A stretch of 64,000 nucleotides of DNA from Squalus acanthias. Taxonomy: Eukaryota. The position numbers and the translations under genes were made by a program. A model generated the notes under the pieces. It ran no database searches and had not been told where the DNA came from. It saw only the letters and a program-made list of their open reading frames with translations. Location: NCBI GenBank assembly GCA_030390025.1, contig CM059432.1, positions 75,642,001-75,706,000 of the forward strand. The letters run 5' to 3'. Each line of letters opens with the position of its first letter. The stretch's first letter is position 1. Positions 1-51,034 of this stretch are shown here, in pieces.

Positions 1-1135
1 ACAACACCAGCAACACCAGCAGGAGCAGCAGCAGTCTTCTCCTCTAACAGGAAAGAGGGGATGAGCAGAGGGGTGCACCTCACAGGAGGCAATACCCCCA
101 ACACAGGGTATATAGGCAGAGGATCAACTTCCTGGACACGACTGAACAGCAGAGCCTCAGGAGGCTCAGGCTATCGCGTCAGGTCATGGCAGACATTTAT
201 AGCCTGCTGGAAGACCTGCTGCCACGTGGACCTGGTGGACACGCCTTACCAGTGACTGTCAAACTCAACACCGCCATCAACTTATTTGCCTCAGGCTCCT
301 TCCAGGGATCTGCAGCAAACATTTGCAGGATCTCGCAGTTGGCCGCCCACAAATGCATTACCAAGGTGACTGATGTCATGTTTGACAAGGCAGGCACTAA
401 TGTACAATTTGCCACTGATGAAGCCAGTCAGACTGAGCGGGCGCTCGGCTTTGCGGCTCTGGCTGACTTTCCACAGGTGTAGGACGTCATCGACTGCACA
501 CATGTGGCCATCAAGGCACCCCATCATAACCCAGGAGTGTTTGTGAACTGCAAGGGTTTTCTCTCCATCAATGTGCAGCTCATCTGCAACCACAAAAAGA
601 TCATAATGCATGTGTACGCCAGATTCCCAGGGAGCTATCATGATTCATTTGTCCTGCGCCAGTCTTCCCTCCCTCAGCTCTTCGCACCTCTGACCAGACA
701 TACCGGCTGGCTGCTTGGGGACAAGGGGTAGCCACTGAAGACGTGGCTGATGACACCCTTGAGGAGGCCAAGCAATGAGGCCGAAGATCACTACAATCAA
801 AGCCAAATGACGATGAGATGTGCAATAGAGCAAGCAATCGGAATGCTAAAAATGTGCATCAGATTCTTGGACAGATCTGGAGGAGCCCTTCAATACACAC
901 CAGCCAGGGTCTCCCGAATGATCGTCGCTTGCTGCATGCATCACAACAGAGCACAGCAGCGAGGATTGGAGCTGCAGGAGGAACAAGGCGCAGAGCGCAG
1001 AGCCTCTTTGGAGGAGTAGGAGCAGGAGGAACACGAGGAGGAGGAGGAGGAGGAACCTGAAGTGGACATGACACCAGCAGTGGCGCACACTGCTTCCCGG
1101 GAGGCCCAGGATGGTCTCATAATGGCATGATTTAG
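1..1135 (+). pseudogene. Harbinger (HARBI1-like DDE) transposase pseudogene
   Basis: Pieces [28 protein letters not shown] and IEQAIGMLK, separated by in-frame stops (ORFs 186-482, 504-731, 750-1019). Confidence 0.92.
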
Positions 1136-1546
1136 TTACGTTGCATCAGTGCACCCATATGACACCCATATGCTGAACCAACATCCCCCCCACACGCCTC
1201 CCCACCACAAAGCAGTCCTAATGTCCAAACCATTCCAGTCACACACATCCATTGCTTGAGGTTAAGTAATGTCTTACCATTCACATCAACTGACAAGGCC
1301 ACTTGCCAGGCAGCAGGCAAAAATGGACAAGACTAGAAGGTTGTGCAAAGAAATAATTTTACGTGGCACAAAAAGTAAACAGAAACTTAACGATCTAACA
1401 TTTTATAATACACCCATGTGCATACCCTTGTGCATCTACAATTGTTTAATCTTTCTCTCCCTACAATTCCTATGCCATGCAACACCTGTGGCTTCAGCAG
1501 AGGTAGAGGCAGGCTGCTCACTTCCCTGCTCTGACTGTTTAGATAC

Positions 1547-4500
1547 TTTTTTATTATTTGTTTATGGGATGTGGGCGTCACTGGCAAGGCCAGCATTTAT
1601 TGCCCATCCTTAATTGCCACCTTCTTGAAACGCTGCAGTCCATGTGGTGAAGGTACTCCCACAGTGCTATTAGGGAGGGAGTTCCAGGATTTTGACCCAG
1701 CGATGATGAAGGAACGGCGATATACTTCTAAGTCAGGATAGTGTGTGACTTGGAGGGGAACTTGGAGGTGGTGGTGTTCCCATGCATCTGCTGCCCTTGT
1801 CCTTCTAGGTGGAAGAGGTCGCGGGTTTGGGAGGTGCTGCCGAAGAAGCCATGGCGAGTTGCTGCAGTGCCTCTTGTAGATGGTACATACTGCAGCCACG
1901 GTACGCCGGTGGTGGAGGGAGTGAATGTTTAAGGTGGTGGATGGGGTGCCAATCAAGCGGGCTGTTTTGTACTGGATGGTGTCGAGCTTCTTGAGTGTTG
2001 TTAGAGCTGCACTCATCCAGGCAAGTGGAGAGTATTCCATCACACTCCTTACTTGTGCCTTGTAGATGGTGGAAAGGCTTTGGGGAGTCAGGAGGTGAGA
2101 CACTCGCCGCAGAATACCTAGCCTCTGACCTGCTCTTGTTGCCACAGTATTTATGTGGCTGGTCCAGTTAAGTTTCTGGTTAATGGTGACCCCCCAGGAT
2201 GTTGATAGTGGGGGATTCGGCGATGGTAATGCCATTGAATGTCATAGAAACATAGAATCTAGGAGCAGGAGTAGGCCATTCGGCCCGTCGAGCCTGCTCC
2301 GCCATTCAATACGATCATGGCTGATCATCCAAATCCAGTACCCTGTCCCTGCTTTAATCCCCACAGTACACATATCCCACCCTACCCCCGTAACCCCACG
2401 TATTTAATTCCCCCAACATATCCCATCCTATCCCCATAACCCCACATATTTAATCCCCCCTAACACTAAGGGTCAATTTATCATAGCCAAATCAACCTAA
2501 CCCACACATTTTTGGACTGTGGGAGGAAACCGGAGTACCCGGAGGAAACCCACGCAGACACGGGGAGAATGTGCAAACTCCACACAGACATGTCATGGGG
2601 AGGTGGTTAGACTCTCGCTTGTTGGAGATAGTCATTGCCTGGCACTTCTGTGGTGCGAATGTTACCTGCCCCTTATCAGCCCAAGCCTGAACATCAGGTC
2701 TTGTTGCATGCGGGCATGGACTGCTTCATTATCTGTGGAGTTGTGAATGGTGCTGAACACTTTGCAGTCATCAGCGAACATCCCCATTTCTGACCTTATG
2801 TTGGAGGGAAGGTTATTGATGAAGCAGCTGAAGATGGTTGGGCCTAGGACACTGCCCTGAGGAACTCCTGCAGCGTTGTCCTGGGGCTGTGATGATTGAC
2901 CTTCAACCACCACAACCATCTTCCTTTGTGCTAGATATGACTCCAGCCAGTGAAGCGTTTTCCCCCTGATTCCCATTGACTTCAGTTTTACTAGGGCTCC
3001 TTGATGCCAGACTCGGTCAAATGCTGCCTTGATGTCAAGGGCAGTCACTCTCACCTCACCTCTGGAATTCAGCTCCTTTGTCCATGTTTGGACAAAGGCT
3101 GTAATGAGGTCGGGAGCCGAGTGGTCTTGGTGGAACCCAAACTGAGCAAGTGCCGCTTGATAGCACTGTCGATGACACCTTCCTTCACTTTGCTGATGAT
3201 TGAGAGTAGACTGATGGGGCGGTAATTGGCCAGGTTGGATTTGTCCTGCTTTTTGTGGACAGGACATACCTGGGCAGTTTTCCACATTGTCGGATAGATG
3301 CCAGTGTTGTAGCTATACTGGAACAGCGGCTAGTTCTGGAGCACAAGTCTTCAGCACGATAGCCGGGATGTTGTCGGGGCCCATAGCCTTTGCTGTATCC
3401 AGTGCGCTCAGCCGTTTCTTGATATCACGTGGAGTGAATCGAATTGGCTGAAGAATGGCTTCTGTGATGATGGGGACCTCGGGAGTAGGCCAATATGGAT
3501 TATCCACTCGGCACTTCTGGCTGAAGTTGGTTGCAAACGCTTCAGCCTTGTCTTTTGCACTCACGTGCTGGGCTCCACCATCACTGAGGATGGGGATATT
3601 CTTGGAGCCTCCTCCCGTTAGTTGTTTAATGGTCCACCACCATTCACGACTGCAGAGCTTTGATCTGATCCGTTGATTGTGGGATCGCTTAGCCCTGTCT
3701 ACAGCATGCTGCTTCCGTTTTTGAGCATGCATGTAGTCCTGTGTTGCAGCTTCCTCAGGTTGGCACCTCATTTTTAGGCATGCTCTTTTACACTCATTGT
3801 TGGTCCCCTGGCTTGGTGGTAATGGTAGAGTGAGGGATATGCCGGGCCATGAGGTTACAGATTGTGGTGGAATACAATTCTGCTGCTGCTGATAACCCAC
3901 AGCGCCTCATGGATGCCCAGTTTTGAGCTGCTAGATTTGTTCTGAATCTATCCCATTTAGCACAGTGGTAGTGCCACACAACACGATGGAGGGTGTTCTC
4001 AGTGTGAAGACGGGGACTTTGTCTCCACAATGACTGTGCGGTGGTCACTGCTGCCATGGACAGATGCATCTGCGACAGGTAGATTGGTGAGGATGAGGTC
4101 AAGTAGGTTTTTCCCTCTTGTTGGTTCACTCACCACCTGTCGCAGGCCCAGACTGGCAGTTATATCCTTCAGGACTCGGCCAGTAGTGGTGATGGACATT
4201 GAAGTCCTCCACCCAGAATACATTCTGTGCCCTTGCTACCCTCAGTGCTTCTTCCAAGTGGTGTTCAACATGGAGGAGTACTGATTCATCAACTGAGGGA
4301 GGGCAGTAGGTGGTAATCAGCAAGAGGTTTCCTTGCCCATGCTTGACCTAAAGCCATGAGACTTCATGGGGTCCGGAGTCAATGTTGAGGACTCACAGGG
4401 CCACTCCTTCCCGACTGTATACCACTGTGCCACCACCCCTGGTGGGTCTGTCCTGCTGGTGGGACAGGACATACCCAGGGATGGTGATGGAGAAGTTCAG

Positions 4501-4902
4501 GACATTGACTGAAAGGTATGATTCTGTGCGTATGACTATGTCAGGCTGTTGCTTGACTAGTCTGTGGGACAGCTCTCCCAATTTTGGCACAAGTCCCCAG
4601 ATGTTGGTGAGGAGGACTTTACAGGGTTGACTGGACTGGGTGTGCCGCTGCCGTGTCCATAGCCGGTGCTGAGGTCGATGCCGGGTGGTCCGTGCAGTTT
4701 CATTCTTATTATTTTGTTTCATAGCAGTTAGTTACAACTGAGTAACTTGCTAGACCATTTCGGAGGGCAGTTAAGAGTCAACCACATTACTGATACTAGC
4801 TTTTTATTCCAGATTTATTTAATTAACTGAATTTAAATTCCCCAGCTGCCGTGGCCTCTAGGATTATTAGCCCAGTGACATTACCACTACGCTACCGTTC
4901 CC
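1547..4902 (-). mobile_element. Full-length but decayed single-ORF LINE (APE endonuclease + RT, CR1-group-like) with tRNA-derived 5' head
   Basis: EN motifs LLTNIWGL, PDIVI.TES and DRPTRGGG (4393-4722). RT motifs NYRPISLLS, LDIKAAFDRVWHQG, GVPQGSVLGP and FADD (2662-3287). C-terminus at 1597-2235. A-rich 3' tail at 1547. The 5' end reads GGGAACGGTAGCGTAGTGG from 4902. Confidence 0.92.
2246..2589 (-). mobile_element. 5'-truncated V-SINE (HE1-like) with CR1-type tail, inserted in the LINE
   Basis: V-domain GGTTTCCTCCGGGTACTCCGGTTTCCTCCCACAGTCCAAA on -, CR1-type tail GGCCGAATGGCCTACTCCTGCTCC. TSD ATGTCAT at 2239-2245 and 2590-2596. Confidence 0.85.
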
Positions 4903-5939
4903 ATATGTGATGTGTGAGACACCAGGTGACAACACTACTTTCTCACTTAGTGGACCCACCGACGTGTGTGTATCGGCGCTGGTGCTTGGTCTGCATGGAT
5001 CGTGTGATGGTGCACCCTCAGAGTCCGTGACCTCCTCTGAGGAGTCGTCTTCCTCCTCTGGCTGGACAGTGGGGGGGACATTTGATGGGCCTGTGGGAGA
5101 GTAAAGACATGAATTAGAACTGTTATGATAAGAATGTTTTAAGTTACCATTATGCAAATGATCATATTTCATTGGCTGCTGACATCAAGTCAACATGAGT
5201 GACTGTTGTATGTCATGTGGCTGTGTGATATTTAATTCTGTTGCTAGGTAGCTGGGAGTTCCCCCTCTCTCCATCTCCCACCACCAGCAGCTCCGCCACT
5301 CGGCTCAGCTCCAGCACCTCCTCCTCTGCTGAAGTGAATGGTGTCATGACTGGAGGTGCACCAACAGTTCGCTGCCTCTCCCAGGTGTTCTGTGCTCTCT
5401 CTCCTACAAGGAGGGAAACAAGAGATCTTTGAGTGAGAGTCATGGAATGAGTGGCAGGGATGGATGGGTAACACCTGTTGAGAGTGACTATGAGGAAGAG
5501 GCGTAACATTGCTTTAAGATGAGGGTGAGTGTCAGTGGTGGATGGTCAGATCGGGATGTGAATAAATGCATAGACAAGGAGGGATGGGTGCACCTGTAAG
5601 GTAGGTTAGTGTGAGGAGTGATGTGCAGGAGTGGGCTTGGGAAGGCAGAGTGAAGGGGTTGGGGTGACACACACATCAGGATGTAGGGCAATGTGGCATT
5701 GTACTCACCTTTCCTGACCTCATGAGGCCATTAAATGCATTTTTGACACTGTATCCAGGTCCTACCAACAACACTCCTGCTGCTCACTTCTTCAGCGATC
5801 TCCAGCCATGCGTTCTGTGTCTGGCCAGCTGGCCTCTTCCTCCCATCAGCAGGGAAGAGGATGTCCCTGACACTTGGAGTAATATCTCCAAGGAGGCATT
5901 GCTAAATCTTGGGGCTGTTTTATGTCTTTGAGCTTGCAT
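4903..5939 (-). pseudogene. Harbinger Myb/SANT-like partner gene, three exon remnants
   Basis: MQAQRHKTAPRFSNASLEILL starts at 5939. Donor AAG|GTGAGT at 5709/5708, acceptors at 5403 and 5090. Homologous to 41274-42890. Confidence 0.8.
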
Positions 5940-14372: not shown

Positions 14373-14419
14373 TAAATTTCTGCTAGTAGAGCCAATTTTG
14401 TTTACTTTTCTGCACTAAT

Positions 14420-14810
14420 TTTTTTTTAAATTCATTCACGGGATGTGGGTGTCACTGGCAAGGCCAGAATATATTGCCCAATGCTAATTGCCCTTAACTG
14501 AGTGGCTTGTTAGGCCATTTCAGAGGGCAGTTAAGAGTCAACCACATTGCTGTGGGTCACACATGTAGGCCAGACCAGCTAAGGGTATGAAATTTCTACA
14601 GGGCATTAGAGAACCAGATGGGTTTTTATGATAATCATTTCATGGTCACCATTACTGATACTAGTTTTATTTTATTCCAGAATTATTAATTAACTCAATT
14701 TAAACTCCACAGCTGTTGTGGTGGGATTTGAACTCAAGTCCCTCAGCATTATTAGTCCAGGTCTCTGGGTTGCTAAGTCCAGTAACATAACTACTACGCT
14801 ACTGAACCCC
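14420..14810 (-). mobile_element. tRNA-derived SINE made of the 5' UTR and 3' UTR of the tRNA-headed LINE
   Basis: A-box-like TAGCGTAGTAG and B-box GAGTTCAAATCCC on -. 14496-14810 matches LINE 5' ends (4735-4902, 37362-37590). 14420-14495 matches LINE 3' tails (1547-1617, 17345-17417, 35098-35167). Confidence 0.88.
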
Positions 14811-15992: not shown

Positions 15993-17344
15993 GGGGGGAA
16001 AATTCGTCCCCTTAGCGCCTCCCGTTACCGCCAGTAGATGGCGCTAATGGGCACTAGACCAGTATTGCCGGGGTGAGGCGAATCCAGCGCCGCACGGCAA
16101 ATCCTATCCCCCCATAGCGCCACCAGTAAGAGCTATCGCCGGGAACGTCAACACCAGGTGGATCGTGATGTCAGTGAGCATGCAACGCTCATTGACTGCC
16201 CGATCTGCTAAGTTGATTCTCACCACTTACCTTAGCGCCTGGATTAAACACTGACAGGGCGTGAAGCACCAGGAAGCCGGCTCCAGGGACGTTATTTAAA
16301 GGGATCATCAGTAATCACTCGCAGCTGTCAGGTTAGTGCAGTTTCAGTGGTTTCTTGTCAGTTTCACGTACCGCAAGTTTCATTCAGTAATTTCAAGGTT
16401 CTTTTGTATCAGGAGTCTTGTGGCAACTAAAAAGTAGTTACATTTATTCTTCAAAGAATCAAACTGCTACAATTGGTAACATTAATGGGGGCTATACTGG
16501 CAGTCAACTTCGCCCTCCAGGATCTACGGCGGAGGGAGCATAGGCAGCGAGAAAGACGGGAACATGTGCGCAGAGGGATGAGGAGGGACATCAGGGCTCT
16601 CACCAGGAGGCCTTACCCTCTGAGGGTATTCCGAGAGCACTTCTCCTACCTTCAATTAAGTGAGGCGCAGTGTATTAGATGGCTCCGCTTCACCAAGGAG
16701 GTGGTCACAGAACTCTGCCACCTCCACCAAACAGACCTCCAGCCTTACACCAGGATGACTTAAAGCCCAGATCCCCTTTGCTCATCACATCCCCATCATT
16801 CCATCCGTCTTGCAGGCCATATCACAGTGCAAAGCTGAAATGAGACACACCACAAAAGAATGGTAAGTGAATTAATAAATTTATCAAAAATCAGTGAACA
16901 CATTTTTACACAAAAATATGAACTATTCACCCTTGTGAAATCCCTTAGTGCCTGTCATTACTGTGCCTTTGCCTACTCTAGTGCTCCTACGAAGCGTTGG
17001 CCCACTGGCTGCAGCACGGTCGGTGGAAGGCTGCTGAGTGTCCGTGGGGCAGACTTCAGATGGCCTTGCAGGACGCCCTCGACCAGCTCTGGACCTGGAA
17101 GGCCCGGCTGTAGACTGCACCACCTCAGCATGGGCGGCAGCAGTCTGGGCTGGCTGGATGACAGGCAGCGACAAGGGCAATGGCTGAGTGCCAGTGGTGG
17201 GAGCAGGAATGCTGTCATCCTGAGACAGGACAGCAGGTTCCTGTTCCACTGGCTCACCCTTATCCACCCTGCTCGTTACATCCTCAAAGAACTCCAGCAA
17301 ATTTGGGTTGCATAACCTGCATGCATAAATGCAAAGCAGGAGAT
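15993..17344 (+). mobile_element. Truncated Harbinger of a distinct family
   Basis: Left TIR GGGGGGAAAATTCG after AAG. Transposase N-terminus RRPYPLRVFREHFSYLQLSEAQCIRWLRFTKEVV (16473-16763). Myb-partner C-terminus on - (16923-17245). Confidence 0.8.
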
Positions 17345-17972
17345 TTTTTTTTATTCGCTTATGGGATCTGGGCGTCGCTGGCAAGGCCAGCATTTATTGC
17401 CCATCCCTAGTTGGCCTTGAGAAGGCAGTGGTGAGCCGCCTTCTTAAACTAGTGCAGTCCGTGTGGTGAAGGTACTCCCACAGTGCTGTTAGGTAGGGAG
17501 TTCCAGGATTTTGACCCAGCGACGATGAAGGATTGGCGATATACTTCCAAGTCAGGATTGTGTGACTTGGAGTGGAACTTGGAGGTGGTGGTGTTCCCAT
17601 GCGCCTGCTGCCCTTGCCCTTCTAGGTGGAAGAGGTCGCGGGTTTGGGAGGTGCTGCCGAAGAAGCCTTGATGAGTTGCTGCAGTGCATCTTGTAGATGA
17701 TACACACTGCAGCCACGGTACGCTGGTGGTGGAGGGAGTGAATGTTTAAGGTGGTGGATGGGGTGCCAATCAAGTGGGCTGTTTTGTCTTGGATGGTGTC
17801 GAGCTTCTTGAGTGTTGTTGGAGCTGCAATCATCCAGGCAAGTGGAGAGTATTCCATCACACTCCTGACTTGTGCCTTGTAGAAGGTGGAAAGTCTTTGG
17901 GGAGTCAGGTGGTGAGACACTCGCTGCAGAATACCTAGCCTCTGACCTGCTCTTGTTGCCACATTATTTATG
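17345..17972 (-). mobile_element. 3' fragment of the tRNA-headed LINE family
   Basis: Near-identical to 1547-2155; RAGQRLGIL and YKAQVRSVMEYSPLAWM. Confidence 0.9.
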
Positions 17973-18240: not shown

Positions 18241-18765
18241 TCTGACACATCCACCTCCCCCCACAACTGTTTGCTTTAATAGGGATATAGCTACAGTGTG
18301 AATTTACTGAAGAAAAAAATGTGCAAATTGCTAAGACTGTGGGCCTCTTAAAATGATATGCACCTGTCAGACCTGAATCTAACTGCTGCCTCCAAGCTCT
18401 GCACACGAGCAATAAAATTCAGTGACGTACTGCCCAAATGGCAGTTAAATTTTTAATTTTAAGTAGATAGCTGCTTAATTTCTTAAGATTCTTAAGAATT
18501 TCTGAAGATTCACTTTGCACTGCAGCTAATGTGAAGTCAAAGTGATGATGAACTACATCATCGAGGTGATGTCACATATGATCTGACCAACATCACTCTG
18601 AGTTATATTACACTACTGTTTGTGTTGCTGTTTTGGCCTTAAATCAAAACTATGTTGTATAACTGCCCTGTTAAAACAATAATGGGCTTGTTTTCTTTAC
18701 ATTAACTAGTGACTAGGAAAAAATGCTTTTTATCTGAAGAAATTCTAGCAAAATTTTGTCTTTCG

Positions 18766-19051
18766 GATGAAACGTTAAACCGTCTGCTCTCTCAGGTGGA
18801 CGTTAAAGATCACATGGCACTATTCGAAGAAGAGCAGGGGAGTTATCCCCGGTATCGTGGCCAATATATATCCCTCAATCAACATCACTAAAACAGATTA
18901 TTTGGTCATTATCACATTGCTGTTTGTGGGAGCTTGCTGCGTGCAAATTGGCTGCCACGTTTCCTACATTACAACAGTGACTACACTTCAAAAGTATTGG
19001 AATGTCCGGTGGTCGTGAAAGGCGCTATATAAATGCAAATCTTTCTTTCTT
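18766..19051 (+). mobile_element. 5'-truncated Deu-domain SINE
   Basis: AAAGATCACATGGCACTATTCGAAGAAGAGCAGGGGAG...GGCGCTATATAAATGCAA(TCTT)n; matches 38136-38458. Confidence 0.85.
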
Positions 19052-20807
19052 CAAAACAATTTTTTTATAGACCAACCATATTAAGTTTGTATTTGCGGTG
19101 CTAGAAGAAATAGCTGAGACCAATTTTTTTCATCCGATGAGGGGATTTAAAATAACATTTTTTAGAGACTATAGATTTTCCAAATCAATGGAATTGGGGG
19201 TAGCTGCGTCTGCAAGCTGCGCATTTAGAGAACCTGCGGCATGCTGCCTTTGATTTTTCAACCATTTATTTTAATGAACAGAAAATCATTGTTAAGACGC
19301 CCACAGTTTCCCAATATCCATTCCTGATGTGCATGACCAGCATGCAAGGTGACCCACTAGTAGCGCACATTCATAAATTATAATTTTATTACATTTCATT
19401 TGGAGGTGCAGTTATTATTTATTTCATACTGTTACATGCCACACACACAATGACATTTCAATGTTAACTTTGTTTCTACAACCATATTTATACTTAATAT
19501 ATGAAAAAGATCTACACTGTCGATTTTGATTAATTTATAATTTTACACTTCAAACTTTTTCTAGCATGATAAATATAAACAAACTTGACAGTATTTAGGT
19601 TCAAGCACACAACACCTTTTCTGCTAGTTAGTGCCTTAAATGTGAAAGCACTCGAGGCTCACACAGCCCACTAGCATTGTCTGTCATGCCTGAGAATCGT
19701 TTGCTACGAATATGAAAGGACTGTTATACAGACCCACTATAACATTTGTCCAGTCAGCAAGTCATTAAGTCCAAATTGAAAGTCTTTTGATGTATCAGAA
19801 AGTGTCTGGAAGTGGCAGTGTCTCCCTAAAAGCTTTGTGCTTAAAAATCCACAAAAGTAACCAGTGTACACAGATGGTGCAGATCTGTGGCCCACAGGAG
19901 AAGGGTTGTTCACTTGGTGTCTCCCCATATTAGAGGAAGTGTCGCTATTGATGGATGATGTCTCTCCACTCTGGGGGAGGGGTAGTCACAGAAGGCAGAA
20001 TAAGTGATCTGGGTCGAGGAAACAGCCCTTTAGGATTTTCCATAGGGACCTATTAAAAACCTATTTTCCTCAGCCTCACTTTGGGGAATTTGAAACTGAT
20101 GTTGGGAAATGTAGTTTTTAATAAGGCAATTTTTCATGTGAAATATGTGAAAAATTATGATGTCATGAAATACTCAATATAAAACAATACAATACTTCAT
20201 TTCCAACAAAAATATAAAACACAAAAGTGCTGGAAATACACCACACAAAATACAGAGAAATCTGACAAAGAGGGGCTAATTTTCAACTTCACCCATTGTA
20301 GAACCTGCCAATTTTCACCCCTTTGATTTCAGTTGAAATGTTAACCTGCCATCTCATTTTAGAGCTGATGGAGCTGCTATATATATATAGGAGAGCTTAA
20401 CTAGCCTAACAGCAAAGCACACCAATGGCACACAATGTATTTGTTTTGTAGAGAGGTAATAATTTTATAGCAGATTAGTAGTAATCAAATGATTTTTCAA
20501 AGCCTGCTGGAGATGGAATGGCCATCAAGGCCTCTCAGAACAGCATTCCATGAACACAGTGTTCCACCTTCGAGCATGGGATGACTGTCTACTGTCAGCT
20601 GATAGTTGTAAAGAAACTTGTGACCTAGGATTTTTTGTTAGCCCTGCACCACATGCCTCTTTTGTGGCTAAAGGTGGTGATTTAGAGGCAAGAAGTCATC
20701 ATGGGGGGAAGGGTACATTTGGAAAAATAGACAGAACAAATCAAAATAAATCAATCTTTTGTTTCTATATACCCAGCTGGCTCGAGTTCAGTGTTATGCT
20801 GAGGAAC

Positions 20808-21340
20808 CATAGAACATAAGAACATAAGAAATAGGAGCAGGAGTAGGCCAATTGGCCCCTCGAGCCTGCTCCGCCATTCAATAAGATCATGGCTGATCTG
20901 ATCCTAACCGCCAATCTACTATCACAGAGCCATCTCCTGAATCTAACAGAATTGGACACACGAAATAGGAGCAGGATCAGGCTACACGGCCCCTGGGCCC
21001 GCTCCGCTACCCACAGGGCCATGACCGATCCGAACCTAGACTCATGTCCAAATTCCTGCCCGCTCCCCGTAACCCTTAATTCCCTTTACTTCTAGGAAAC
21101 TGTCTATTTCTGTTTTAAATTTATTTAATGATGTAGCTTCTACAGCTTTTTGGGGCAGCATATTCCATGAACCTACCACCCTCTGAGTGAAGTAGTTCCT
21201 TCTCATCTCAGTTTTGAAAGAGCAGCCCCTTATTCTAAGACTATGTCCCCTAGTTCTAGTTTCACCCATCATCGGGAACATCCTCCCCGCATCCACCCGA
21301 TCCAACCCCTTCACAATCTTTTATGTTTCAATAAGATCTA
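20808..21340 (-). mobile_element. CR1 LINE 3' fragment with doubled 3' UTR
   Basis: MKGLDRVDAGRMFP...TRGHSLRI...FTQRVVGSWNMLP (21042-21314) and (TTCTTATG)n tail. Confidence 0.9.
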
Positions 21341-23153: not shown

Positions 23154-25276
23154 GTGGGCGAAATTCGGTTGGTTAGCGCCTGGCGGCAGGAACGACAGCT
23201 ACAGGGGGACAGTGCACAGTCGGCTGGGAGCTTGGGGAGCACTATTTAATGGCGCGCACGTCCTACGTTCTCCCATCAGCAAACTATTCTGCCTATGCAC
23301 GCTGAGAGGAAGAGAAGCGTTTGGAGGGACTTCACGCTTCCACACTTGAGGGACTATTGGTCGGCAGAGAAACTTATCAGTTTCTCATTTCTGTTACCTT
23401 TGCTGCAGCAACACTTTGAAGATTTAATGGGGGCTCCTTGCTCGAGCTGTGTGAGCGGCTGCAGCTCTGCCTGCCCGCCTCCCATGCGCTGCTGCTCCCT
23501 CCTGTTGTGGGCCAGCTTGGCCTGCAAGAAAAAGGACAACGTGTGAGTGATTCTGCAACCATGTGTTTGCCACATGTGCCTACCATAGTTGAATAGCTGT
23601 TAATGTCTGCGGGGTGTGAGATGTGGATGTGACATTTAGTAGGTGGGCATAGTTGGTGGTTGTGCTTTGGGGATATGGCAGTATATACAGTCTGTGCACA
23701 CAGTGGGGTTGGGATGGTGGAATGAAGAGGTTTTTGAAGCATGTACTCACCCTGACCACCCGAGTGAGGTCGTTGAACTTCTTCTGACACTGGGTGTTCA
23801 TTCTTCCCACCACACTTCTGGAGGAGACATACTGGGCCACCTCCCTCCACAGCCTTGAAAATTCCCGGGGCAATGGCCTCTTGTCAGTGTTTGGGAACAG
23901 CAGTCCCCATCGCCATTCGACTGCCACGACCAGAGCCTCCAATGCCTGGTCACTGAAGCAGGCTCTCTCCCTAGGCCCCCAATGCCTGGTCACTGAAGCA
24001 GGCTCTCTCCCTAGGCCGCCAATGCCTGGTCACTGAAGCAGGCTCTCTCCCGAGGCCCCCAGTGCCTGGTCACTGAAGCAGGCTCTCTCCCTAGGCCCCC
24101 AATGCCTGGTCACTGAAGCAGGCTCTCTCCCTAGGCCCCCAGTGCCTGGTCACTGAAGCAGGCTCTCTCCCTGGGCCTCCAATGCCTGGTCACTGAAGCA
24201 GGCTCTCTCCCTGGGCCTCCAGTGCCTGGTCACTGAAGCAGGTTCTCTCCCTGGGCCCCCAATGCCTGGTCACTGAAGCAGGCTCTCTCCCTAGGCCTCC
24301 AGTGCCTGGTCACTGAAGCAGGCTCTCTCCCTGGGCCCCCAATGCCTGGTCACTGAAGCAGGCTCTCTCCCTGGGCCCCCAATGCCTGGTCACTGAGGCA
24401 GGCTCTCTCCCTGGGCCCCCAGTGCCTGGTCACTGAAGCAGGCTCTCTCCCTGGCCCCCAGTGCCTGGTCACTGAAGCAGGCTCTCTCCCTGGGCCCCCA
24501 ATGCCTGGTCACTGAGGCGGTGGGCTCTCTCCCTGGGCCCCCAATGCCTGGTCACTGAAGCAGGCTCTCTCCCTGGGCCTCCAGTGCCTGGCCACTGAAG
24601 CAGGCTCTCTCCCTGGGCCTCCAGTGCCTGGCCACTGAAGCAGGCTCTCTCCCTGGGCCTCCAGTGCCTGGTCACTGAAGCAGGCTCTCTCCCTGGGCCC
24701 CCAGTGCCTGGTCACTGAAGCAGTGAGCTCTCTCCCTGGGCCTCGAATGCCTGGTCACTGAAGCAGGCTCTCTCCCTGGGCCTCCAGTGCCTGGTCACTG
24801 AAGCAGGCTCTCTCCCTGGGCCCCCAATGCCTGGTCACTGAAGCAGGCTCTCTCCCTGGGTCTCCAATGCCTGGTCACTGAAGTGGTGGGCTCTCTCCCT
24901 GGGCCTCTGCAATGCCATCACTGTCTCAGTGCAAGGTTTGAGGCTCCCTCCAGGACCAGGTCACAAGCAGCAATGAGAAGGGTGCGGCTGTGCAGGATGC
25001 TTGAACCTCCCCTTTAAGAACTGGTAGGTGCCGCCGGTATGTCTGATTAGTTGTGATTCACAGCCCCTGGCCTTGGGTAGCGCTCTGAGGCAGCGCCCCG
25101 CTCCCCGACGTTAGCGCCCTAAATGGGGTGTGTGGCACTTGATTTAGTGCTGCAGTCACCTCCAGGGGCGTTGGAGGAGAATATCGCAGAGTCCGGCGAT
25201 AATTCTCGCCAGGTGTTAATGGTTGCGCCCGGCCAATGTTAGCGCCCCAAAATGGACGATACCGAATTTCTCCCCC
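23154..25276. mobile_element. Internally deleted Harbinger containing a minisatellite
   Basis: TIRs GTGGGCGAAATTCGGT and GGGGGAGAAATTCGGT, TSD GAG. Myb exons on - (FSDQALEALV...WREVAQYVS...QCQKKFNDL; AKLAHNRREQQRMGGG). Confidence 0.9.
23936..24907. repeat. 40-bp minisatellite, about 24 units
   Basis: Unit (A/C)A(A/G)TGCCTGGTCACTGAAGCAGGCTCTCTCCCT(A/G)GGCC(C/T)C in head-to-tail array, with one 39-bp and three 43-bp variants. Confidence 0.97.
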
Positions 25277-29321: not shown

Positions 29322-30388
29322 GGCCGTAATGTTCCCAGTCCCGAGCGTGCAGGGTTGGGGGCGGGTCAGCAGTAAAAATCGCGGAAATTGCCAGCGCTTC
29401 GGTAACCCGCCCTCATCCCACCGACTTCCGCATTTAAATCGTGCGCGTTTCCCAGCCACCACGGACCCGCTCGGGAGAGGCGGGCAACCTCATTGAAGTA
29501 CTTAAATACGGACACTTAAGAGGCTTTTTAACATCAGGTTTGGCTTTAACTTCTTGAGCACTGAATTCACGCACCTCGGGAACCTCACCTGTGAAGGGAA
29601 GGCGGAAGCTCAGTGGCCATTGTGCGAGTTTATTAAGTGACAGCTGGAAAAAGCATATAAATACACACACATTACACCTGCTTCCTTGCCTAAGGGAAAG
29701 GTTCTTGCTGACTCCATTTTGTGCAGAGATTTAGCTGTCAGCAGTTTGCTGGTCATTTCTGCAACCTCGGAAGCCACTCTCACCACATTGCTAGTCACTG
29801 TCAGAACATTGAGGGATTGTGCCTCTGATCGCCACTTTACCTGCCATCTATTAGATCAGCATGCTTATGCTGTATCACCTTGGACCACAAAATTGGATGA
29901 AGGTGAGCCCCAGCACTAACACCAGCCACACCAGCAGTAGTAGCCACAACACCAGCAGCAGCAGCAACTACAACAGCAGCCTTCTCCTCAACGACCTGAT
30001 GCTACACAGGAGAGAGGGGATCAGCATAGGGCTGCACCGTGCCGGAGGCGATACCCACAACACAAGGTATACAGGCAGAGGATGAGCTTCCTCAACATGA
30101 CTGAGCAGCAGTGCTTCAGGAGGCTCAGGCTATCGCGCCAGGTCGTCGCAGACATTTGTAGTTTGCTGGAACAAGACCTGCTGCCCAGAGGACCTGGTGG
30201 ACATGCCTTACCAGTGGCTGCCAAAGTCACCACCACCCTCAACCTCTTTGCCTCAGGCTCCTTCCAGGGATCTGCAGCAGACATTTGCAGGATCTCGCAG
30301 TCGGCCGCCCACAGTTGCATCACCCAGGTGACCGATGCTATTTTTGACAAGTCAGCCAATTATGTCAACTTTGCCACTGATGAAGCCA
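29322..30388 (+). mobile_element. 5' part of a Harbinger (family of 55958-59867), truncated
   Basis: Left end matches 55958 onward. Transposase [19 protein letters not shown]...FASGSFQG...VNFATDEA, then abrupt break. Confidence 0.9.
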
Positions 30389-34555: not shown

Positions 34556-34615
34556 ATTTTCTACATTCAGGGATCCAAGCCAGGAGCACAGCCTGGATCC
34601 CTGAATGTAGAAAAT
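34556..34615. repeat. Perfect 22-bp inverted repeat (hairpin)
   Basis: ATTTTCTACATTCAGGGATCCA, 16-nt spacer, TGGATCCCTGAATGTAGAAAAT. Confidence 0.95.
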
Positions 34616-34618
34616 GCT

Positions 34619-34903
34619 CAGATAATCTGTTTTAGTGATGTTGGTTGAGAGCTACAGATTGGCCAGGATAACTGGGGAGAACTCTCCTGCTCTTCTTCGG
34701 AATAGTGCCATGGAATCTTTTATATCTATCTGAGAGGGAAGACAGGGTATCGGTTTAACATCTTGTCCGAAAGACAGCACCTCCGGCAGTGCAGCACTCC
34801 CTCAGTCAGCCTAGATTTTGTGCTCAAGTCTCTGGAGTGGGACTTGAACCCACAATCTTCTGACTCAGAAGTGAGAGCTCTACCCACTGATCCACAGTTG
34901 GCA
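34619..34903 (-). mobile_element. Deu-domain SINE, 3'-truncated
   Basis: tRNA head TGGATCAGTGGG...GGTTCAAGTCCC on -, body matches 37990-38290. Confidence 0.85.
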
Positions 34904-34904
34904 C

Positions 34905-37590
34905 GGAAGGTGGTGGTGGGCCTTCTCCTTAAACCACTGTAATCTTTGTTGTAATGGTGCTCCTACAATGGCATTAGGTAGGAAATTCCATGGTCGCTGG
35001 GTCAAAATCCTGGAACTCCCTACCGAACAGCATTGTGGGAGTACCTTCACCACATGGACTGCAGCGGTTCAAGAAGAAGGCTCACCACCACTTTCTCAAG
35101 GGTAATTAGGGATGGGCAATAAATGCTGGCCTTGCCAGCATCGCCCACGTCTTGAAAATTAAAAAAATACTGACCCAGCGATGATGAAGGAATGATGGTC
35201 AGTATATGCCCAAGTGTGTGACTTGAGGGAAACTTGCAAGTGACGGTGTTCCCATGATCTTACTGCCTTTATCCTTCTTGGCAGTTGCAGAGCTGGGAGG
35301 TATTATCATAGTAAGCTTAATGAGTTGCTGTAGTGCATCTTGTAGATTATACATATTGCAGACACATGGTGGAGGGGGTGGATATTGAGCTTAGTGTCCA
35401 GGGCACTGATCAAGTGGACTGCTCTGTCCTGGATGGTGTTGAGCTCTTTGAGTATTATGGCTGCACCTAACTGGGCGCGTATTCCATCACACTTCTGACT
35501 TGAGCCTCATAGATGGTGGAGAGGCTTTGAGGGGTCAGGACGTGAGTCAACCGTTGCAGAGTACCCAGCATCTGCCCTGCTCCTGTAGCCACAGTGTTGA
35601 TATGGCTGGTCCAGTTCAGCTTCTAGTCAATGGTGACCCTCAGGATGTTGATAGTTGGGGACTTAGTGGTTGAAGGTGGAGGGCTTTAATTTGGCATTCT
35701 CTTGTTGATGGTCATAGCCTGGCCCGAATGTTACCTGCCTCTTGTCAGCCCAATCCTGGATGTTGTCCAGGTCCTGCTGTAGATGGGCATGGCCTGCTGC
35801 ATTATTGGAGGAGTTCTAATGGGAACTGAGCACTGTGGAATCATCAGTGAAGAGTTCTAATCCTGACCTTGTCCTGACCGAGGGAAAGTTATTGATGAAA
35901 CAGCTGAAAATGGTTCGACCAAGAGCACTGCCATTAGAAACATCTACATCAATGTCCTGGGGCTGCAATGATTGGGCTCCAGCAGCCACGACCATCTTCC
36001 TGTATGTTAGGTATGACTTCAGCCACTTTATCTCAGTTTTGCTAGGTCTCCTTGGTACCATACTCGGTTGACTGCTGCATTGATGTCAAAGGCAGCTACT
36101 CTGCCTCTCCTCTGGAATTCAGCTCTTGCATCCATGTTTGGATCAAGGTTGTAATAAATTCAGCAGCTTAACGGTTCTGGTGGACCCTGAACTGAGCACC
36201 AGTGAGCAGGTTATTGGTGAGTAGATGCCACTTGATGGTGCTATTGGTTACTTCCTCCATCGCTTTGCTGATGGTTAGGAGGAGGATGCTAGGGTGATAT
36301 TTGGCCAGGTTAGATTTGTCCTGCTTTTCTGTAGATAGGATATAGCAGGGCAATTTACCACATTGTCAAGCAAATGCCAGTATCATAGCTGCCTTGGAAT
36401 AGCTTGGTTAGGGATTGCCTAGTTCTGGCATACTTCAACACTACAGCCCAGATGTTATCAGGACCCAGTGCCTTTACTACGTCTTATATTCTCAGGTGCT
36501 TCTTAATATCATGTGGAGTGAATCAAATTGGCTGGTTAATGGCATCTATGATAGTGGGGACCCCAGGAGGAGGCCAAGTAGGATCATCCACTCAGCACTT
36601 TTGGCTGAAGACACTTTGCAAGCATGTCAGCCTTTTCCCGTAGACTCACGTATTGGGCTCCATGACGGTTGAGGATGGAGATATTCATGAATCCTCACCT
36701 TCCCGTTAGTTGCCTGGTTGTCCAGCACCATTTTTGATTTGGATGTAGTAGGGCTACAGAGATTTGCTCTGATCCATTGGTCATGGGACTGCTTAGCTCT
36801 GTTTGTAGCCTGGGGCTTTTGGTGTTTTGCATGCAGGTAACCTTGTGTTGTAGTTTCACTAGATTGGTCGCTCATTCTAAGGTATGCCTAGTGCTGCTGA
36901 TGGCACGCCCTTCTGTACTCTGGATTGAGTCAGGGTTCATCTCTAGTCTAATGTAAATGGATGAGTAAGGGATGTGCTGGGTCATGAAATTACAGCTTGT
37001 GGTGGTGTATAATTCTGCTGCTGTTGATGGCCCACAGTGCTTCATGGATGCCTAGATTTGGGTAGCTGAATCTGTCGCTACCTCTAATGGGTCTATTCTG
37101 CCATTGGTGACTGGGTACTCCCAAGTAATATTATGGAGGACTCTGGGATATTGGCTGATAGATATGATTCTAAGAGAACAACTGTGTCAGACTGTTGCTC
37201 GATTAGTCTCTGGGACAGCTCTCCCAGCTTGGTAAGAGGGCTTTGCAGCGTTGACTGGGTTAGAATTTCCGGAGTCTTGTCTTGATTTAATGCCTAGGTT
37301 GTTGCTGATAGGTTTGTCCGATAATTCTCTTATTGTTCCAATAATGTAGAAACTGTTTTACAACTGAATGGCTTGCTGCAGAGGGCAATAAGAGTCGACC
37401 AGATATTGAGTCACATGTAGTTCAGACCAAGTAGGGGTGGCAGGTTCCCTTCCCTGAAGGACATTATTGTATCAGTTGGGGTTTTACGACAATCAAACAG
37501 TCCCCATGCTAATTTTTCTGGTGCTAGCCTACAGATTACCAGAATTATCAAATTTAGTTTCCCAACATCCCATGGTGGGAGATGAACTTA
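34905..37590 (-). mobile_element. Second, older copy of the tRNA-headed single-ORF LINE
   Basis: Collinear with 1547-4902 (KQDKSNLAKY, TIFSCFINN). 5' region 37362-37590 matches the SINE body and B-box. Probable A-box remnant beyond the MITE at 38685-38718. Confidence 0.85.
34995..35167 (+). mobile_element. Younger 3' fragment of the same LINE inserted antisense into the older copy
   Basis: AGSKSWNSLPNSIVGVPSPHGLQRFKKKAHHHFLKGN*, then 3' UTR and A-tail. Confidence 0.85.
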
Positions 37591-37592
37591 TT

Positions 37593-38682
37593 GGCCTTGA
37601 TTTAACACCAACCCCCCACCCCCAACCCCCCGCCGCACCCCTTGACAGGCGGGAGTGGGTCGGGAGGGTTGGTTAAATATCAGGATCAGGCAATGTGACC
37701 CCCTTCCCACCTCTTTAAATTTTGAAGTGCAGAAATCAGGCAATGTTTGAGGCTCCCGCAAAAGGCAGGCTAGGGCCTAATTAACATACAAAAGTCACGG
37801 CCTGATGACATATTCGGAGGTGCGACTTACATTTCACAGTAAGTGAGGGGGAGGCCCAAACTGAGGGATTCCTGGCAGCTGATCCGAGGCGGGAGCTGCC
37901 CCCTCTCCAAGGGAAGTGGCTCTTTTAGCATTCCTTGTGGGCCTTGTGGAGCAGGAGTTCTCACCCCAGGCACCACCAGGAAGCCTTCAGTGTCAGCTGT
38001 GGCTCAGTTGGTAGCACTCTCGCCTCTGAGCCAGAAGGTTGTAGGTCCTGGGTACCACTCCAGAGACTTGAGCACAAAAATCTAGGCTGACACTCCAGTG
38101 CAGTACTGAGGGAGTGCTGCACTGTCAGAGGTGCCGTCTTTCAGATTAGCCATTAAACCAAGGGCCCGTCTGCTCCCTCAAGTGGATGTAAAAGATCCCA
38201 AGGCACTATTTTGAAGACGAGCGGGGGAGTTATCCCAGGTGTCCTGGCCAATATTTATCCCTTAATCAACATCACTTAAAAAATAGGTTATCTGGTCATT
38301 ATCGCATTGCTGTTTTTGGGAGCTTGCTGTGCGCAAATTGGCTGCCGCGCTTCCTATATTACAGCAGTGACTACACTTCAAAAATTACTTCATTGTCTGT
38401 AAAGTGCTTTGGGACGTCCGGTGGTCGTGAAAGGTGCTATATAAATGCAAGTCTTTTTTCATCCTCCTCCAGCCTCAATCGCCAGCCTCCCCACAGCCCT
38501 ACCGATCTCAAACCTCCGCCCAGCCCTCCTGCCGTTAGTGTTCCCTCCTGGCTTCCGGGCGGGAGGCAGCCTTACAATATGCTAATGAGGACCTGCTGTT
38601 AAGATTGGCAGATCCTCTACGTCCCCAGCCTGGCCGTGTTCCCTATGCCACTGCGCTTCCTCGCACCCTCCCCGTAAATATC
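37593..38682. mobile_element. Harbinger-type MITE interrupted by a Deu-SINE
   Basis: Starts GGCCTTGATTTAAC; shared GGAGCAGGAG motif and GC-rich subterminal boxes. Right end degenerate. Confidence 0.55.
37990..38458 (+). mobile_element. Full-length tRNA-derived Deu-domain SINE (SacSINE1-like)
   Basis: A-box TGGCTCAGTTGG, Deu core GATGTAAAAGATCCCAAGGCACTATT...GGTGTCCTGGCCAATATTTATCCC, tail GCTATATAAATGCAAGTCTTT. Confidence 0.88.
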
Positions 38683-39455
38683 TATTATTGCTAATCATAA
38701 GCACCAGGCTACTACACCTTGATTTCTGTCTGCAGCTTCTGTGAATTTGAGCGAGTGATGATCAGCTTCAGGACAGGAAATAAATGCTGTTGAAAAATGT
38801 AGGAAATCCTTGAAATGGCTAGAATGTGACAGGAGAGTTCAACTGTTGTGTCGGTTTGATTTTGAGGCTTTTTGAAATTTGGTATGGATAGCCCACATCA
38901 AAGAATACAAAAGCACGTGCATGTGTACACAGACACACACTGAAAGAATTTAGTTTCTCTGACCTTGACTCTACAATTAAAGTAAACAGGAAAAATACAT
39001 CAAAAGCAGCACTTATTGATGAGGGCTGACTGGAGCTTAGGGAATTTGCAGTAGCAGGTTATCAGCAGAGCGCTGAGGCTTGCTCGAGTTTTCTTCTGCT
39101 CTCTCAGTTTATCGGCCGTCAATCTCCCACCTCTCCCACTGCTCAATTGGTAGAAATCTCACACTAATGGAAGGTGGATGCTTAATTTCTATAATCTGCC
39201 CAGACATCAGATTTAAATAAATCGAATGAAATTATCAAAGGTACTCTTTTTACCAGTTTGCACATCAGTTTATTGTATATGGGTTTAAAACCAGATATTT
39301 GTGCATTTCAAATATAACAAAAGCAGCTCTTTAAAGAAAATAAAGTTCCCAAGACTCATTTCACACTACATTTTAATCACAAAATATGTATGTTCAGGAA
39401 AAAATGGTGCATGATTTGCAGAGCAAATATTTATACAGGTTATTGTATTAAAATA

Positions 39456-41273: not shown

Positions 41274-42890
41274 ATGTCCACCAGCAGGCAAAAATGTGCT
41301 CCACAATTTGATGAGCCCTCCCTCCAAGCTCTGGTGGAGGGAGCAAGAACCAATAAGGAGGTGCTCTTCCCTTCCTCAGGGAGAAAAAAGCCACCACAAC
41401 AAACTAAAGCTGTGTGGCTGCAAGTGGCCCGGGAGGTCAATGCCATCTCTATGTTCCGCAGAACCTGGCTGCAGTGCAGGAAGAGGTTTCATGACCTTCT
41501 CCGAACAGGAAAAGTGAGTATGACTTTCCCATCTCCCTCAATCTCATCCCCATCGCCTCTCCTCACCAGCACTCTGCTTTGCCAACCTCTTCCTCCACAT
41601 CCCACTTGACACTGACATCCCTGCACCCTTACCCATTCCCTCTCTCTCTATGGTCACATTCACTTAACTATTCGACCATTCACTTAACTAGCCCTCACAC
41701 TCTCTATCACTGTGATGCAATGACAACAACTTACAACACACAGGGAGGGCGCTTGGTATCTTTCTAAGCATCTATGCTATGGATTCTCTTCACTCACTCC
41801 TTCATTCTCACTCAAACTCCACTTCTGTCCCTCATTGCAGGAAAAGAGAGCACACAATAAGAGGGAAAGAGGGAGGACAGGAGGAGGGCCACCCTCAGTA
41901 GCCCAGCTCACCATTTCGGGGGAGGCGGCCCTGGAAATCGCCGGGATCGAGGAGGATTCCCAAGTAGGGGACGGACAGGCGGGCGCATCACAGCAAGCTG
42001 GTGACAGAATAGTTTGGCATCTCTCTCATTGACATTGCATGAGTCACTGATAATGAATCTGATGCTCTAACACATTGACTTATGATCATCTGCACTATTC
42101 AATGTGCATGTAAGGTTGACCTCACAGCTCTAACTCTTTCCTTTACTCCCCCACAGGACCATCGAGAGCCCCCGTCCCCACTGTCCATGAGGAAGAGTCT
42201 GAGCTTCCAGACTCCTCAGAGGAAGCTGCAACCTCTGAGGGCGCTCCGTCACCAGAATTAAGTGCACACATCACCAGCGTAGACACTCACACCTCGGTGG
42301 GACCTTCGGGACATAGAGTAGTGTTGTCACCTGGTGTATCACAGGTCACAAGTGAGTATCAGCAGATGGTGGAGACAGGGACAGCAGTGGAGAGTCCTCG
42401 TCGGAGGGCGCAGGACTCTGCCAGCTCGGCTCAGCTGCATGTCGACCCTGTGCCTCCGGGTCCATCCAGAAGGAGAGCGGTGCTGGAACTCCAGGAACAG
42501 GTGCAGGAGTCTCTGTCAGGTTTTGTCTCCAGGGTCGCTGCGAGTGTCGAGCGAATGGAGGAGTCCAGCGCGAACATGAGCAGAGCCTTTGTGGAGGCAT
42601 TGGCGCATGAACGCATCACCATGGAAAGGATGGCAACCTCCGTGGAAAGGATGGCTACAGTAGAGGAGAGGATGGCTATGGCCATGGAGGAGCTAAGTCG
42701 CCAGAGTGTAGAAAACATGGTCATTGTTCAGAATAGACTGGCATCTCTTGAGGAGCGATGGTCAGCTATTGAGCATAGAATCCAGACCTTCATGGAAGTC
42801 CTCTGGAGTCGGACTTCCAGTGCAGAAACGGGTCCTCATGGCCCCCCTGCAGTGCTGTCCAGCCACTTGCTAGCTCTGAAGTGGGGCTGA
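41274..42890 (+). CDS. Harbinger Myb/SANT-like DNA-binding protein, spliced (41274-41513, 41841-42000, 42157-42890; 377 aa)
   Basis: Myb/SANT motif W..VAREVNA...RTWLQCRKRFHDL. GT-AG introns of phase 0 and 1 keep the frame open. Coiled-coil-like ERMAT repeats. The homologous C-terminus continues out of frame to 43189. Confidence 0.85.
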
Positions 42891-43455
42891 CCCATGAGAG
42901 GGATGTTGGTGGCAGACAATAAGGAAGTGGGGGCTCCTCTCCAAGCGCTCACACAACCATGCCACTGCAGAGCCCTCGGTCAGAGCCCCACCAGAGTCCA
43001 CACCCAACTGAGATCGGCGTCTCAACCCCTGCACAGCCGCAGGAGCAGCAGACTGTTGCTGAGCCCTCACAGGCTCGCAACCCCAGAGGATGCCTGCCAA
43101 AGGTGTCGAAGCAGGAGCAGCAAGAGAGTGAGCTAGGGGCCTCCACTTCTGCTGAAGCCACAGGGGAAGCACGTGTAAGAGGAAGATAATGCACAAGTAG
43201 TCACAAGGGTAGTCACTTGGGTGTAATGCGTTTAATTTTGAAAAGCCATCAGGTGCTTATTGTCATAAAAAATTCTGATGGCAAACTGTTGCAGTTGTGG
43301 CGTATGTCATTTAGCTAATGGGACTTCCACATTGAGGGCTTAGGGTGACTTGCAATTGTCAGTATGGTGGTCAGAGTGATAGGAATCCGCAGGTTCATGG
43401 CCATTGTCGATGCTCTGGTAAGAGGCTGCGAGGCAAAAGTGCTTGATTGGCTAGG

Positions 43456-46082: not shown

Positions 46083-46494
46083 ATAGTGTCATGAGTTTGA
46101 CTTTTTAAGGTCTCCTTATAAATTCAGATCATTTTTGCTTCATATTGCCCGTCACTTTAAAAAAATAGTATTTTGTACTGCAGAGTGGTACGATGCACAT
46201 TTATCCTTGTGATCTTAGCCATGCCATCAGAGAGAACATTAGAGAAAAGGGAGGTTCTTTTCTAGAGGAGCTAGGTAACATCAGAGGCTAGTTAACAGCA
46301 GGCTGCTTTTAAGCAGTTCCCATTACCTGGTTCATGAACAGCACTGGCACAGGCTGGTCACTGAACATGCATGGCTCAAAGAGCAAAGAAATCTAATTTT
46401 AAGGGATAAATCTAAAGTAAGTTTCATTAGACTTGCTTACTTAGATAGACCTTAAGATTTGACAAGCAAATGTTCACATTTTTAGGCATATAAA

Positions 46495-50988: not shown

Positions 50989-51034
50989 TGATCTCCTTGT
51001 ATAGTCAGGTTGGAGAGCGCGAGAGGCGGCAGAG

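Follow-up and report, generated by a model that had tools for sequence, protein, structure and literature searches.

The window analysed in this study is a 64,000-nt stretch of Squalus acanthias DNA (contig CM059432.1). At 1547-4902, its minus strand carries a 5'-complete, decayed member of a LINE family, sharing 97% identity with the family consensus over the aligned columns. The initial annotation had placed the start of this element at an A-box-like sequence. Both parts of that claim were confirmed: the same first base, position 4902, was found in independent copies with unrelated flanks, and positions 4894-4884, starting at the ninth base of the element, exactly fit TRGCNNARYGG, which we take to be the consensus of the A-box of type 2 Pol III promoters. 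The head, corresponding to the 5' UTR (4732-4902), contains this tRNA-like start and a remnant of a conserved central region. The frame that continues into the endonuclease opens at 4731, which leaves 171 nt to the start of the element, close to the 180 nt described previously; an intact head has 329 nt, and the short head of this copy is an artefact of two deletions, one of 38 nt (4856/4855), which takes out the B-box, and one of 121 nt (4790/4789). Since the stop-free frame begins after only 171 nt, there is indeed no room for an ORF1.

Downstream of the head, the minus strand encodes a basic N-terminal stretch and an APE endonuclease (4014-4731; Pfam PF03372 weak, E 0.019, with the catalytic motifs mapping here), a linker and a reverse transcriptase (2598-3801; Pfam RVT_1, E 1.8e-21 on 2662-3141), and finally the C-terminal part of the ORF followed by a short 3' UTR and an A-rich tail (1547-2246), with AATAAA at 1601-1596. 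A later insertion of 351 nt on the same strand (2247-2597) belongs to a different repeat, similar to a 5'-truncated V-SINE and also found at 50871-50991 and 20815-20898. Compared with the consensus, the copy has lost sequence in 13 deletions, which measure 3-121 nt and mostly show 2-5 nt of microhomology. The single endonuclease-RT ORF reported at this locus was recovered as one open frame in the family consensus only; in the focal copy it is interrupted by stops, by the 13 deletions and by the 351-nt insert. The focal copy is dead; lacking a B-box, it cannot be the active unit. The element is itself nested in a Harbinger-like element, which lacks about 650 nt here when compared with its paralogue at 58119-58773.

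Other members of the family were found in the window. A second, older copy (35171-37590, minus strand) is 68-73% identical to the consensus (68% over consensus positions 174-626) and retains a B-box remnant, the central region and the junction between head and endonuclease, as had been noted for a more diverged copy with the same head. Its probable A-box remnant (38696-38712, minus strand, 3 mismatches in 17) is displaced by about 1.1 kb of sequence, the putative MITE of the initial annotation; the window contains three matches of this type, where 0.13 would be expected, and both of the others belong to family heads. A genome search for relatives of this copy returned the main family only. Within its end lies the 3'-end fragment of another copy in the opposite orientation (34994-35151, plus strand). 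A 5'-truncated copy lacking the head (17344-17972, minus strand) shares 95% identity with the consensus 3' end, and an internal fragment of an older copy (54522-55457, plus strand) is 80% identical. Finally, a short SINE-like element of 390 nt (14416-14805, minus strand) consists of a complete head, both A- and B-box included, that passes directly into the last 65 nt or so of the LINE and an A-tail.

The majority consensus, for which 54 copies were used in the 5' part and as many as 15 pieces in the 3' part, is 3,307 nt long (about 3.3 kb), and copies, chosen for high score, are on average 96.9% identical to it. It comprises a 329-nt head with an A-box at position 9 and a B-box at position 74, followed by a single stop-free frame at 330-3251 (973 codons) in which the catalytic motifs of both endonuclease and RT were found; matches of the ORF protein in PDB were L1 ORF2p and R2. 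No ORF1 exists in the consensus, where only the 329 nt precede the frame, with stops in all frames. The first methionine is codon 287, and the frame itself has no AUG before the endonuclease. This feature, as well as the presence of the same head in many short elements made of head and tail, had escaped the initial annotation. An A-rich stretch just beyond the junction may be a former SINE tail that now encodes the first residues of the protein.

Linkage between head and LINE body was analysed with a DNA query restricted to the endonuclease (window 4200-4700), for which the best 40 of 5,160 candidates were scored and 30 loci returned. Head sequence lay directly upstream in 27 of the 30 loci: 13 copies reached the first six bases of the head (12/29 without the focal copy) and 14 ended within it, at 13 different points; the remaining 3 stopped below the junction. 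No alternative shared 5' end was found among these 30 loci, the upstream flanks of which share scattered unrelated repeats only. All 20 young heads inspected (rows 2-21 of 40) ran past the junction, 15 of which did so up to the end of the retrieved sequence, and none jumped to the tail. Exact-pattern searches allowing one mismatch gave 17,698 genomic matches for the A-box motif, 10,954 for the junction between head and LINE and 90,143 for the tail motif, with no match for reversed-pattern controls. Related sequence also spanned head and body in assembled contigs from sequencing runs labelled as four organisms, none of the runs listed as containing it being recorded as RNA.

These data bear on a rival explanation, in which there is no chimeric unit and an ordinary LINE repeatedly inserts at one site of a pre-existing SINE, or in which the two copies of the window are nested by chance. 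Target-specific LINEs do exist in the Tx1 group (PMC4494074, in the part available), and stand-alone short elements with the same head are found here. Against nesting, however, the endpoints of 14 of the 30 copies are scattered within the head; beyond the A-tail, the six copies that retain both ends are flanked by unique sequence and by no SINE remainder; the truncated window copy at 17344-17972 has no head; and many short forms retain a few LINE-side bases beyond the junction. This explanation is already largely refuted and we regard it as extremely improbable. The argument against a chance SINE insertion, made earlier from two copies, now extends to 27/30 loci selected by the endonuclease and to 10,954 junction matches. 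The data supported the conclusion that an APE-RT element with a single ORF has this head as an integral part, at its 5' end, and it is practically certain that the head joined to one APE and RT ORF is the architecture of the family.

The family combines properties of two classes of retrotransposons. Like a LINE, it has APE and RT domains (Pfam RVT_1 and an open consensus frame with both sets of motifs), interspersed and 5'-truncated copies (90,143 tail versus 10,954 junction matches) and an A-rich 3' end, with A-tails at 35 of 40 sampled ends. No evident target-site duplication was seen in the six copies with both ends (6/6) or in the focal copy; in the CR1 group, such duplications are commonly short or missing. 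Like a SINE2, it starts with a tRNA-like head containing an A- and a B-box and lacks internal oligo-T (no TTTT or TVTTT in 3,307 nt). SINE2 elements are short and non-coding, a description that fits the short derivatives only and not the 3.3-kb coding element. An exact-word search of published supplements on the SINE central domains (CORE, V, Deu, Meta and UCON3) did not find short motifs of the head central region, and a literature search with short motifs gave irrelevant primer matches only. The family is an abundant, protein-coding LINE that starts with a tRNA-like promoter typical of non-coding SINEs.

The preservation of this promoter was assessed in heads matched by regular expression: 17 of 22 kept a B-box 44-57 nt after the A-box motif, and the common first base was sharp, 8 nt before the A-box. 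Similarity to tRNA was weak; an intact head (L009) scored 25.6 bits (E 0.027) against the Rfam tRNA model, the gathering score of which is 29, and ARAGORN called no tRNA in 7 intact heads. Two AATAAA motifs lie within the head, at 121 and 132, and would be awkward for a Pol II RNA. Folding of the head showed no excess stability (z 0.30), so that no IRES-like structure was demonstrated. The main rival to transcription by Pol III is that a SINE was captured as a 5' UTR and that Pol II makes the full-length transcript, either by reading through from host genes or from a promoter lying in the central region, the A- and B-boxes serving the short forms only. This is the less probable reading. LINEs are regarded as Pol II transcripts in the available text of PMC5786205, and the similarity of the head to tRNA is weak; the sharp first base shared at a fixed distance from the A-box and the retention of the B-box in 17/22 heads count against this reading.

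If Pol III reads the whole element, its terminators matter. The shortest ones are TTTT and TVTTT, according to the portion of PMC8466645 available, and these two motifs were counted as minimal terminators. The sense strand of the consensus contained none of them and its antisense strand 20; 6.9 sense motifs were expected after base shuffling (P=0.001), and 4.2 in the ORF when the amino acids were kept fixed in a codon-aware null (P=0.006), with none observed. The depletion affected T runs in general: the consensus has no T4 run as compared to 14 A4, 11 C4 and 9 G4 runs, 5 T3 runs versus 15.6 expected (ratio 0.32; 0.55-1.34 in relatives), and a single T-rich pentamer versus 12.6 expected, the A, C and G equivalents being at or above expectation. 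T4 taken alone (none versus 1.6-1.7 expected under codon-aware nulls, P about 0.16) was not significant, and the P values depend on one another, several related statistics having been tried. As a control we used 62 related ORFs of at least 500 codons from 80 fetched metagenome loci, 18 shorter ones having been dropped. All 62 contained terminators, at a density of at least 2.48 per kb and with observed/expected ratios of 0.47-1.63 (median 1.01). In raw copies of the family (132.6 kb) the density of T4 was 0.07 per kb, versus 3.95 per kb in a host CR1-like ORF represented by 19 segments (8.1 kb). Phenylalanine accounts for 1.85% of residues, a lower share than in any of the 102 long homologues compared (lowest 2.51%). 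The T content of the element is low (19.6%), and only 4 of the 62 control ORFs are equally T-poor, which counts against the argument. Shared variants that would create a terminator occurred at 0/77 sites versus 51/2367, numbers too small for significance. The depletion is confined to T and to one strand, the sense strand, and is not found in the host CR1 or in 62 relatives.

If the full-length element were a Pol II transcript, the depletion of T runs could reflect the avoidance of U-rich processing signals or of splice acceptors, or be a relic; the host CR1 and the 62 relatives, which are under the same Pol II constraints, do not show it. The available text of PMC4494074 rules out Pol III transcription of SINEU by its internal oligo-T, and the argument made here for the headed LINE is the reverse of that logic. 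Transcription by Pol III is indirectly supported by the retention of the boxes in most 5'-complete copies and by the strand-specific absence of terminators over 3.3 kb, and it is somewhat more likely than not that this polymerase transcribes the full-length element.

The 3' ends are less clear-cut. AATAAA is located 39 nt before the A-tail. Of 40 tails sampled and assessed by eye, 35 could be scored: 21 had a single T before the A-tail and 14 had two T or more before the A-run, 7 of them with a minimal terminator; genome-wide, 8,345 3' ends had one T and 682 had four. One sampled tail had a T-run inside the A-run. T-runs at 3' ends may stem from changes after insertion. An AATAAA upstream of a tail mostly preceded by one T is an argument for Pol II. 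Pol III SINE RNA can also be polyadenylated in an AAUAAA-dependent manner (PMC8466645, in the section available).

Excluding CpG sites, pN/pS, based on rough site counts, was 1.16 for singletons, 0.9 for variants in two copies, 0.36 in 3-4 copies and 0.64 in at least 5, supporting purifying selection on the ORF in source copies. None of the 68 top-scoring copies (the best protein matches) had a stop-free full-length frame, the longest stop-free frames being 693-844 codons, and for this reason the family may have died out in this genome. How the protein would be made is the weakest step of the proposed life cycle. Nine AUGs are found in the first 360 nt and none enters the frame without a stop, so cap-dependent scanning fails to explain translation. 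A cap would make translation easier, a point in favour of Pol II; since none of the nine AUGs leads into the frame, scanning of a capped RNA is no explanation either. Efficient translation of a Pol III transcript devoid of AUG is unusual. One candidate for the start codon is the ACG found at codon 4. A frameshift start from a short upstream ORF at position 358 was rejected as a general solution, its AUG being missing in 10 of 70 scored copies, mainly older ones. The ATG found at codon 4 of the focal copy was also set aside as the source start: it is a minority allele (13/51 copies) at a CpG and was treated as decay of ACG because it is as frequent as decay of the neighbouring CpG (14/51). Both changes exceed the median CpG rate of 0.12, and ATG could still have been the source allele.

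A split life cycle would avoid part of this difficulty: Pol III would make the RNA that is copied, and the protein would come from Pol II read-through of intragenic copies, acting in trans via the conserved 3' tail. The avoidance of terminators would then be explained without the translation of an uncapped RNA, and the 90,143 tail matches together with the abundance of short forms bearing the tail indicate that the protein is able to work in trans. However, an ORF kept under purifying selection is easier to understand when the RNA that is copied also codes for the copying protein, and the lack of AUG would be left unexplained. We consider this scenario improbable.

We favour a model in which a single RNA serves both functions. 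Pol III factors would bind the internal A- and B-boxes, and the polymerase would read the entire element and stop at a T-run at or just beyond the 3' end. A poly(A) tail would be added via the nearby AAUAAA, as in T+ SINEs, and the uncapped RNA would be translated in a cap-free manner, beginning at a non-AUG codon close to where the frame opens. The protein would copy its own RNA by target-primed reverse transcription, often yielding 5'-truncated copies. Since promoter and tail are both internal, a deletion of the middle of a headed LINE would give a ready-made SINE, which would explain the many elements consisting of head and tail. Taken as a whole, an autonomous coding retrotransposon with a polyadenylated 3.3-kb Pol III RNA, translation without cap or AUG, a coding sequence remodelled as far as its amino acids by the avoidance of terminators, and SINEs spawned by internal deletion has, in our estimation, an even chance of being correct in every part.

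The junction of the short window element at 14416-14805 had 272 genomic matches. Classed by eye, the first 40 A-box matches on one contig comprised 14 that enter the LINE, 21 that jump to the tail and 5 that are interrupted; with the older head as a query, the 20 matches were divided into 11 long and 9 short ones. On either side the breakpoints are variable but recurrent, with entry into the tail near positions 3170, 3200, 3206, 3216 and 3240. One variant adjacent to the A-box was found in 18 short and 3 long forms, as compared to 3 short and 11 long forms otherwise (Fisher P=0.0003), an association indicating that short forms make up lineages of their own. Repeated internal deletion from headed LINEs fits these observations best, and some short forms may be deletions that occurred after insertion.

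Relatives were identified at several distances. Proteins of Heptranchias, Pristiophorus and Heterodontus contain pieces 52-85% identical to the ORF, suggesting that the family is common to several sharks. The closest full-length proteins are 34-37% identical and are mostly found on 3.2-4.8-kb contigs, with lancelet and moth proteins in addition. In an RT tree of 58 rows, with an uncertain root, the element falls among single-ORF marine homologues (support 94/87), near P0005 but not in one supported clade with it, and outside the 98/98 group that contains the turtle CR1-like protein P0094. This position makes 'Zenon-like' a lead, the tree being without a named Zenon reference. No tRNA-like match to Rfam was found upstream in 14 metagenome loci of distant relatives, and ARAGORN called one antisense tRNA (L111) in 44 relative loci, a program that also misses the heads of the family itself. 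The only relative fetched that was both fairly close and 5'-complete (L090) has no tRNA head and a different leader of about 1 kb with T-runs. This one example suggests that the head was gained in the shark lineage. It seems rather likely that a Zenon-like autonomous non-LTR element of the CR1 group took over a tRNA-derived SINE, which became its 5' end and serves it as a promoter.

In the usual division, LINEs code for protein and use Pol II, and SINEs are non-coding and use Pol III. If our reading is correct, a high-copy vertebrate family with a SINE promoter, an intact RT frame and no Pol III terminators would break this division and offer a natural system to ask whether a long, uncapped RNA made by Pol III is translated, and by what means. 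For annotation, repeat masking would label thousands of these heads as SINEs and treat the attached bodies as LINEs of their own. In the open-access literature searched, no description was found of an autonomous LINE transcribed by Pol III or of the head of this family.

One of the closest structural parallels is Zenon. In the available text of PMC6740152, lepidopteran CR1-Zenon elements likewise have a single endonuclease and RT ORF, with no ORF1, and a poly(A) end, and Persaeus, an internally deleted derivative, is a short form made of 5' and 3' ends like the short elements described here. Unlike the shark family, the 5' end of the Zenon-derived element is described there as having no tRNA homology or Pol III promoter. 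The moth protein P0007 is 33% identical to our element, and its close relative P0005 also lies outside the turtle CR1-like RT group; judging by taxon and structure, and not by comparison with named Zenon sequences, both are presumably Zenon. A 'CR1-Zenon like' class is listed for the whale shark in the accessible part of 10.1101/443036. The architecture is not wholly unprecedented, since a LINE whose tRNA-like sequence matches many families of SINE2, RTE-1_DAn, and elements related to it (Repbase) are mentioned in one sentence of PMC5786205, the only paper searched to name it; this sentence gives no position, promoter use or terminator content. In contrast to the shark element, RTE-1_DAn belongs to the RTE clade and to another host. 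B2, Dip and Ves, which are T+ SINEs, also have a Pol III head, AATAAA, a T-run of variable length and poly(A), as presented in the available part of PMC8466645. They are short, non-coding and mammalian, whereas the shark family mostly has one T before the tail and a terminator at this position would be putative. Finally, Bov-tA, SINE2-1_ACar and the hagfish SINE2-9/10_EBu (PMC5786205, PMC7245038 and PMC4494074, each in the portion available) are composed of a tRNA head followed by pieces of the 5' and 3' ends of a LINE, like our short forms. In those bipartite SINEs the head joins an already deleted, non-coding LINE, whereas in the shark family a full-length coding element bears the head, and short forms can therefore arise by deletion alone. 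If this is true, SINEs born by deletion from a headed LINE would take their place beside the head-addition model given in the available text of PMC5786205.

Harbinger-like elements formed the insertion surroundings of both the focal tRNA-headed LINE (window 1547..4902, minus strand) and L009, a genomic copy of the same family with an intact head. Several copies of this DNA transposon, which we presume to be Harbinger-like on the basis of its motifs, were present in the window (1-1550, 4906-5870, 29323-30388, 42120-44727 and 55959-59493), and one of them retained a transposase frame open over 423 codons (43456-44727).

The focal copy and the copies at genomic loci L001-L060 carried many short deletions with 2-5 nt of microhomology. 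They suggest that microhomology-mediated deletion is frequent in the Squalus acanthias genome. Once joined, loci L052 and L066 showed one full-length member of the family inserted, in reverse orientation, within the 3' part of a second member.

Pieces of the LINE ORF, with 52-85% identity, were found inside the annotated shark proteins P0003, P0012, P0016, P0017, P0021, P0163 and P0164. These proteins are probably gene-model errors arising from intronic copies; exonisation is possible. Outside the family, L090, a metagenome contig with a single-ORF relative, displayed a leader of approximately 1 kb (positions 1-1000) with a duplicated motif of approximately 55 nt. This leader may also contain a structured RNA; an Rfam search with it returned no match. 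On another metagenome contig, L111, a tRNA-Ile on the opposite strand (1965-2039) overlapped the start of a LINE-like ORF.

The window also contained a tandem array of approximately 24 copies of a 40-nt unit (23935-24916) and local duplications with 98-99% identity (46492-46960 with 47703-48171; 46957-47707 with 49064-49814), reflecting either recent duplication or an assembly artefact. CR1-type LINE fragments (49759-50898, 51696-52241 and 53083-53568), one with an RT frame open for 379 codons, served as the host control in the T-run (Pol III terminator) comparison. Another SINE-like repeat was present in three copies (18757-19052, 34604-34918 and 37971-38463), one of which lies between the older LINE copy (35171..37590, minus strand) and its probable A-box remnant (38696-38712); we take this repeat to resemble a Deu-domain SINE.
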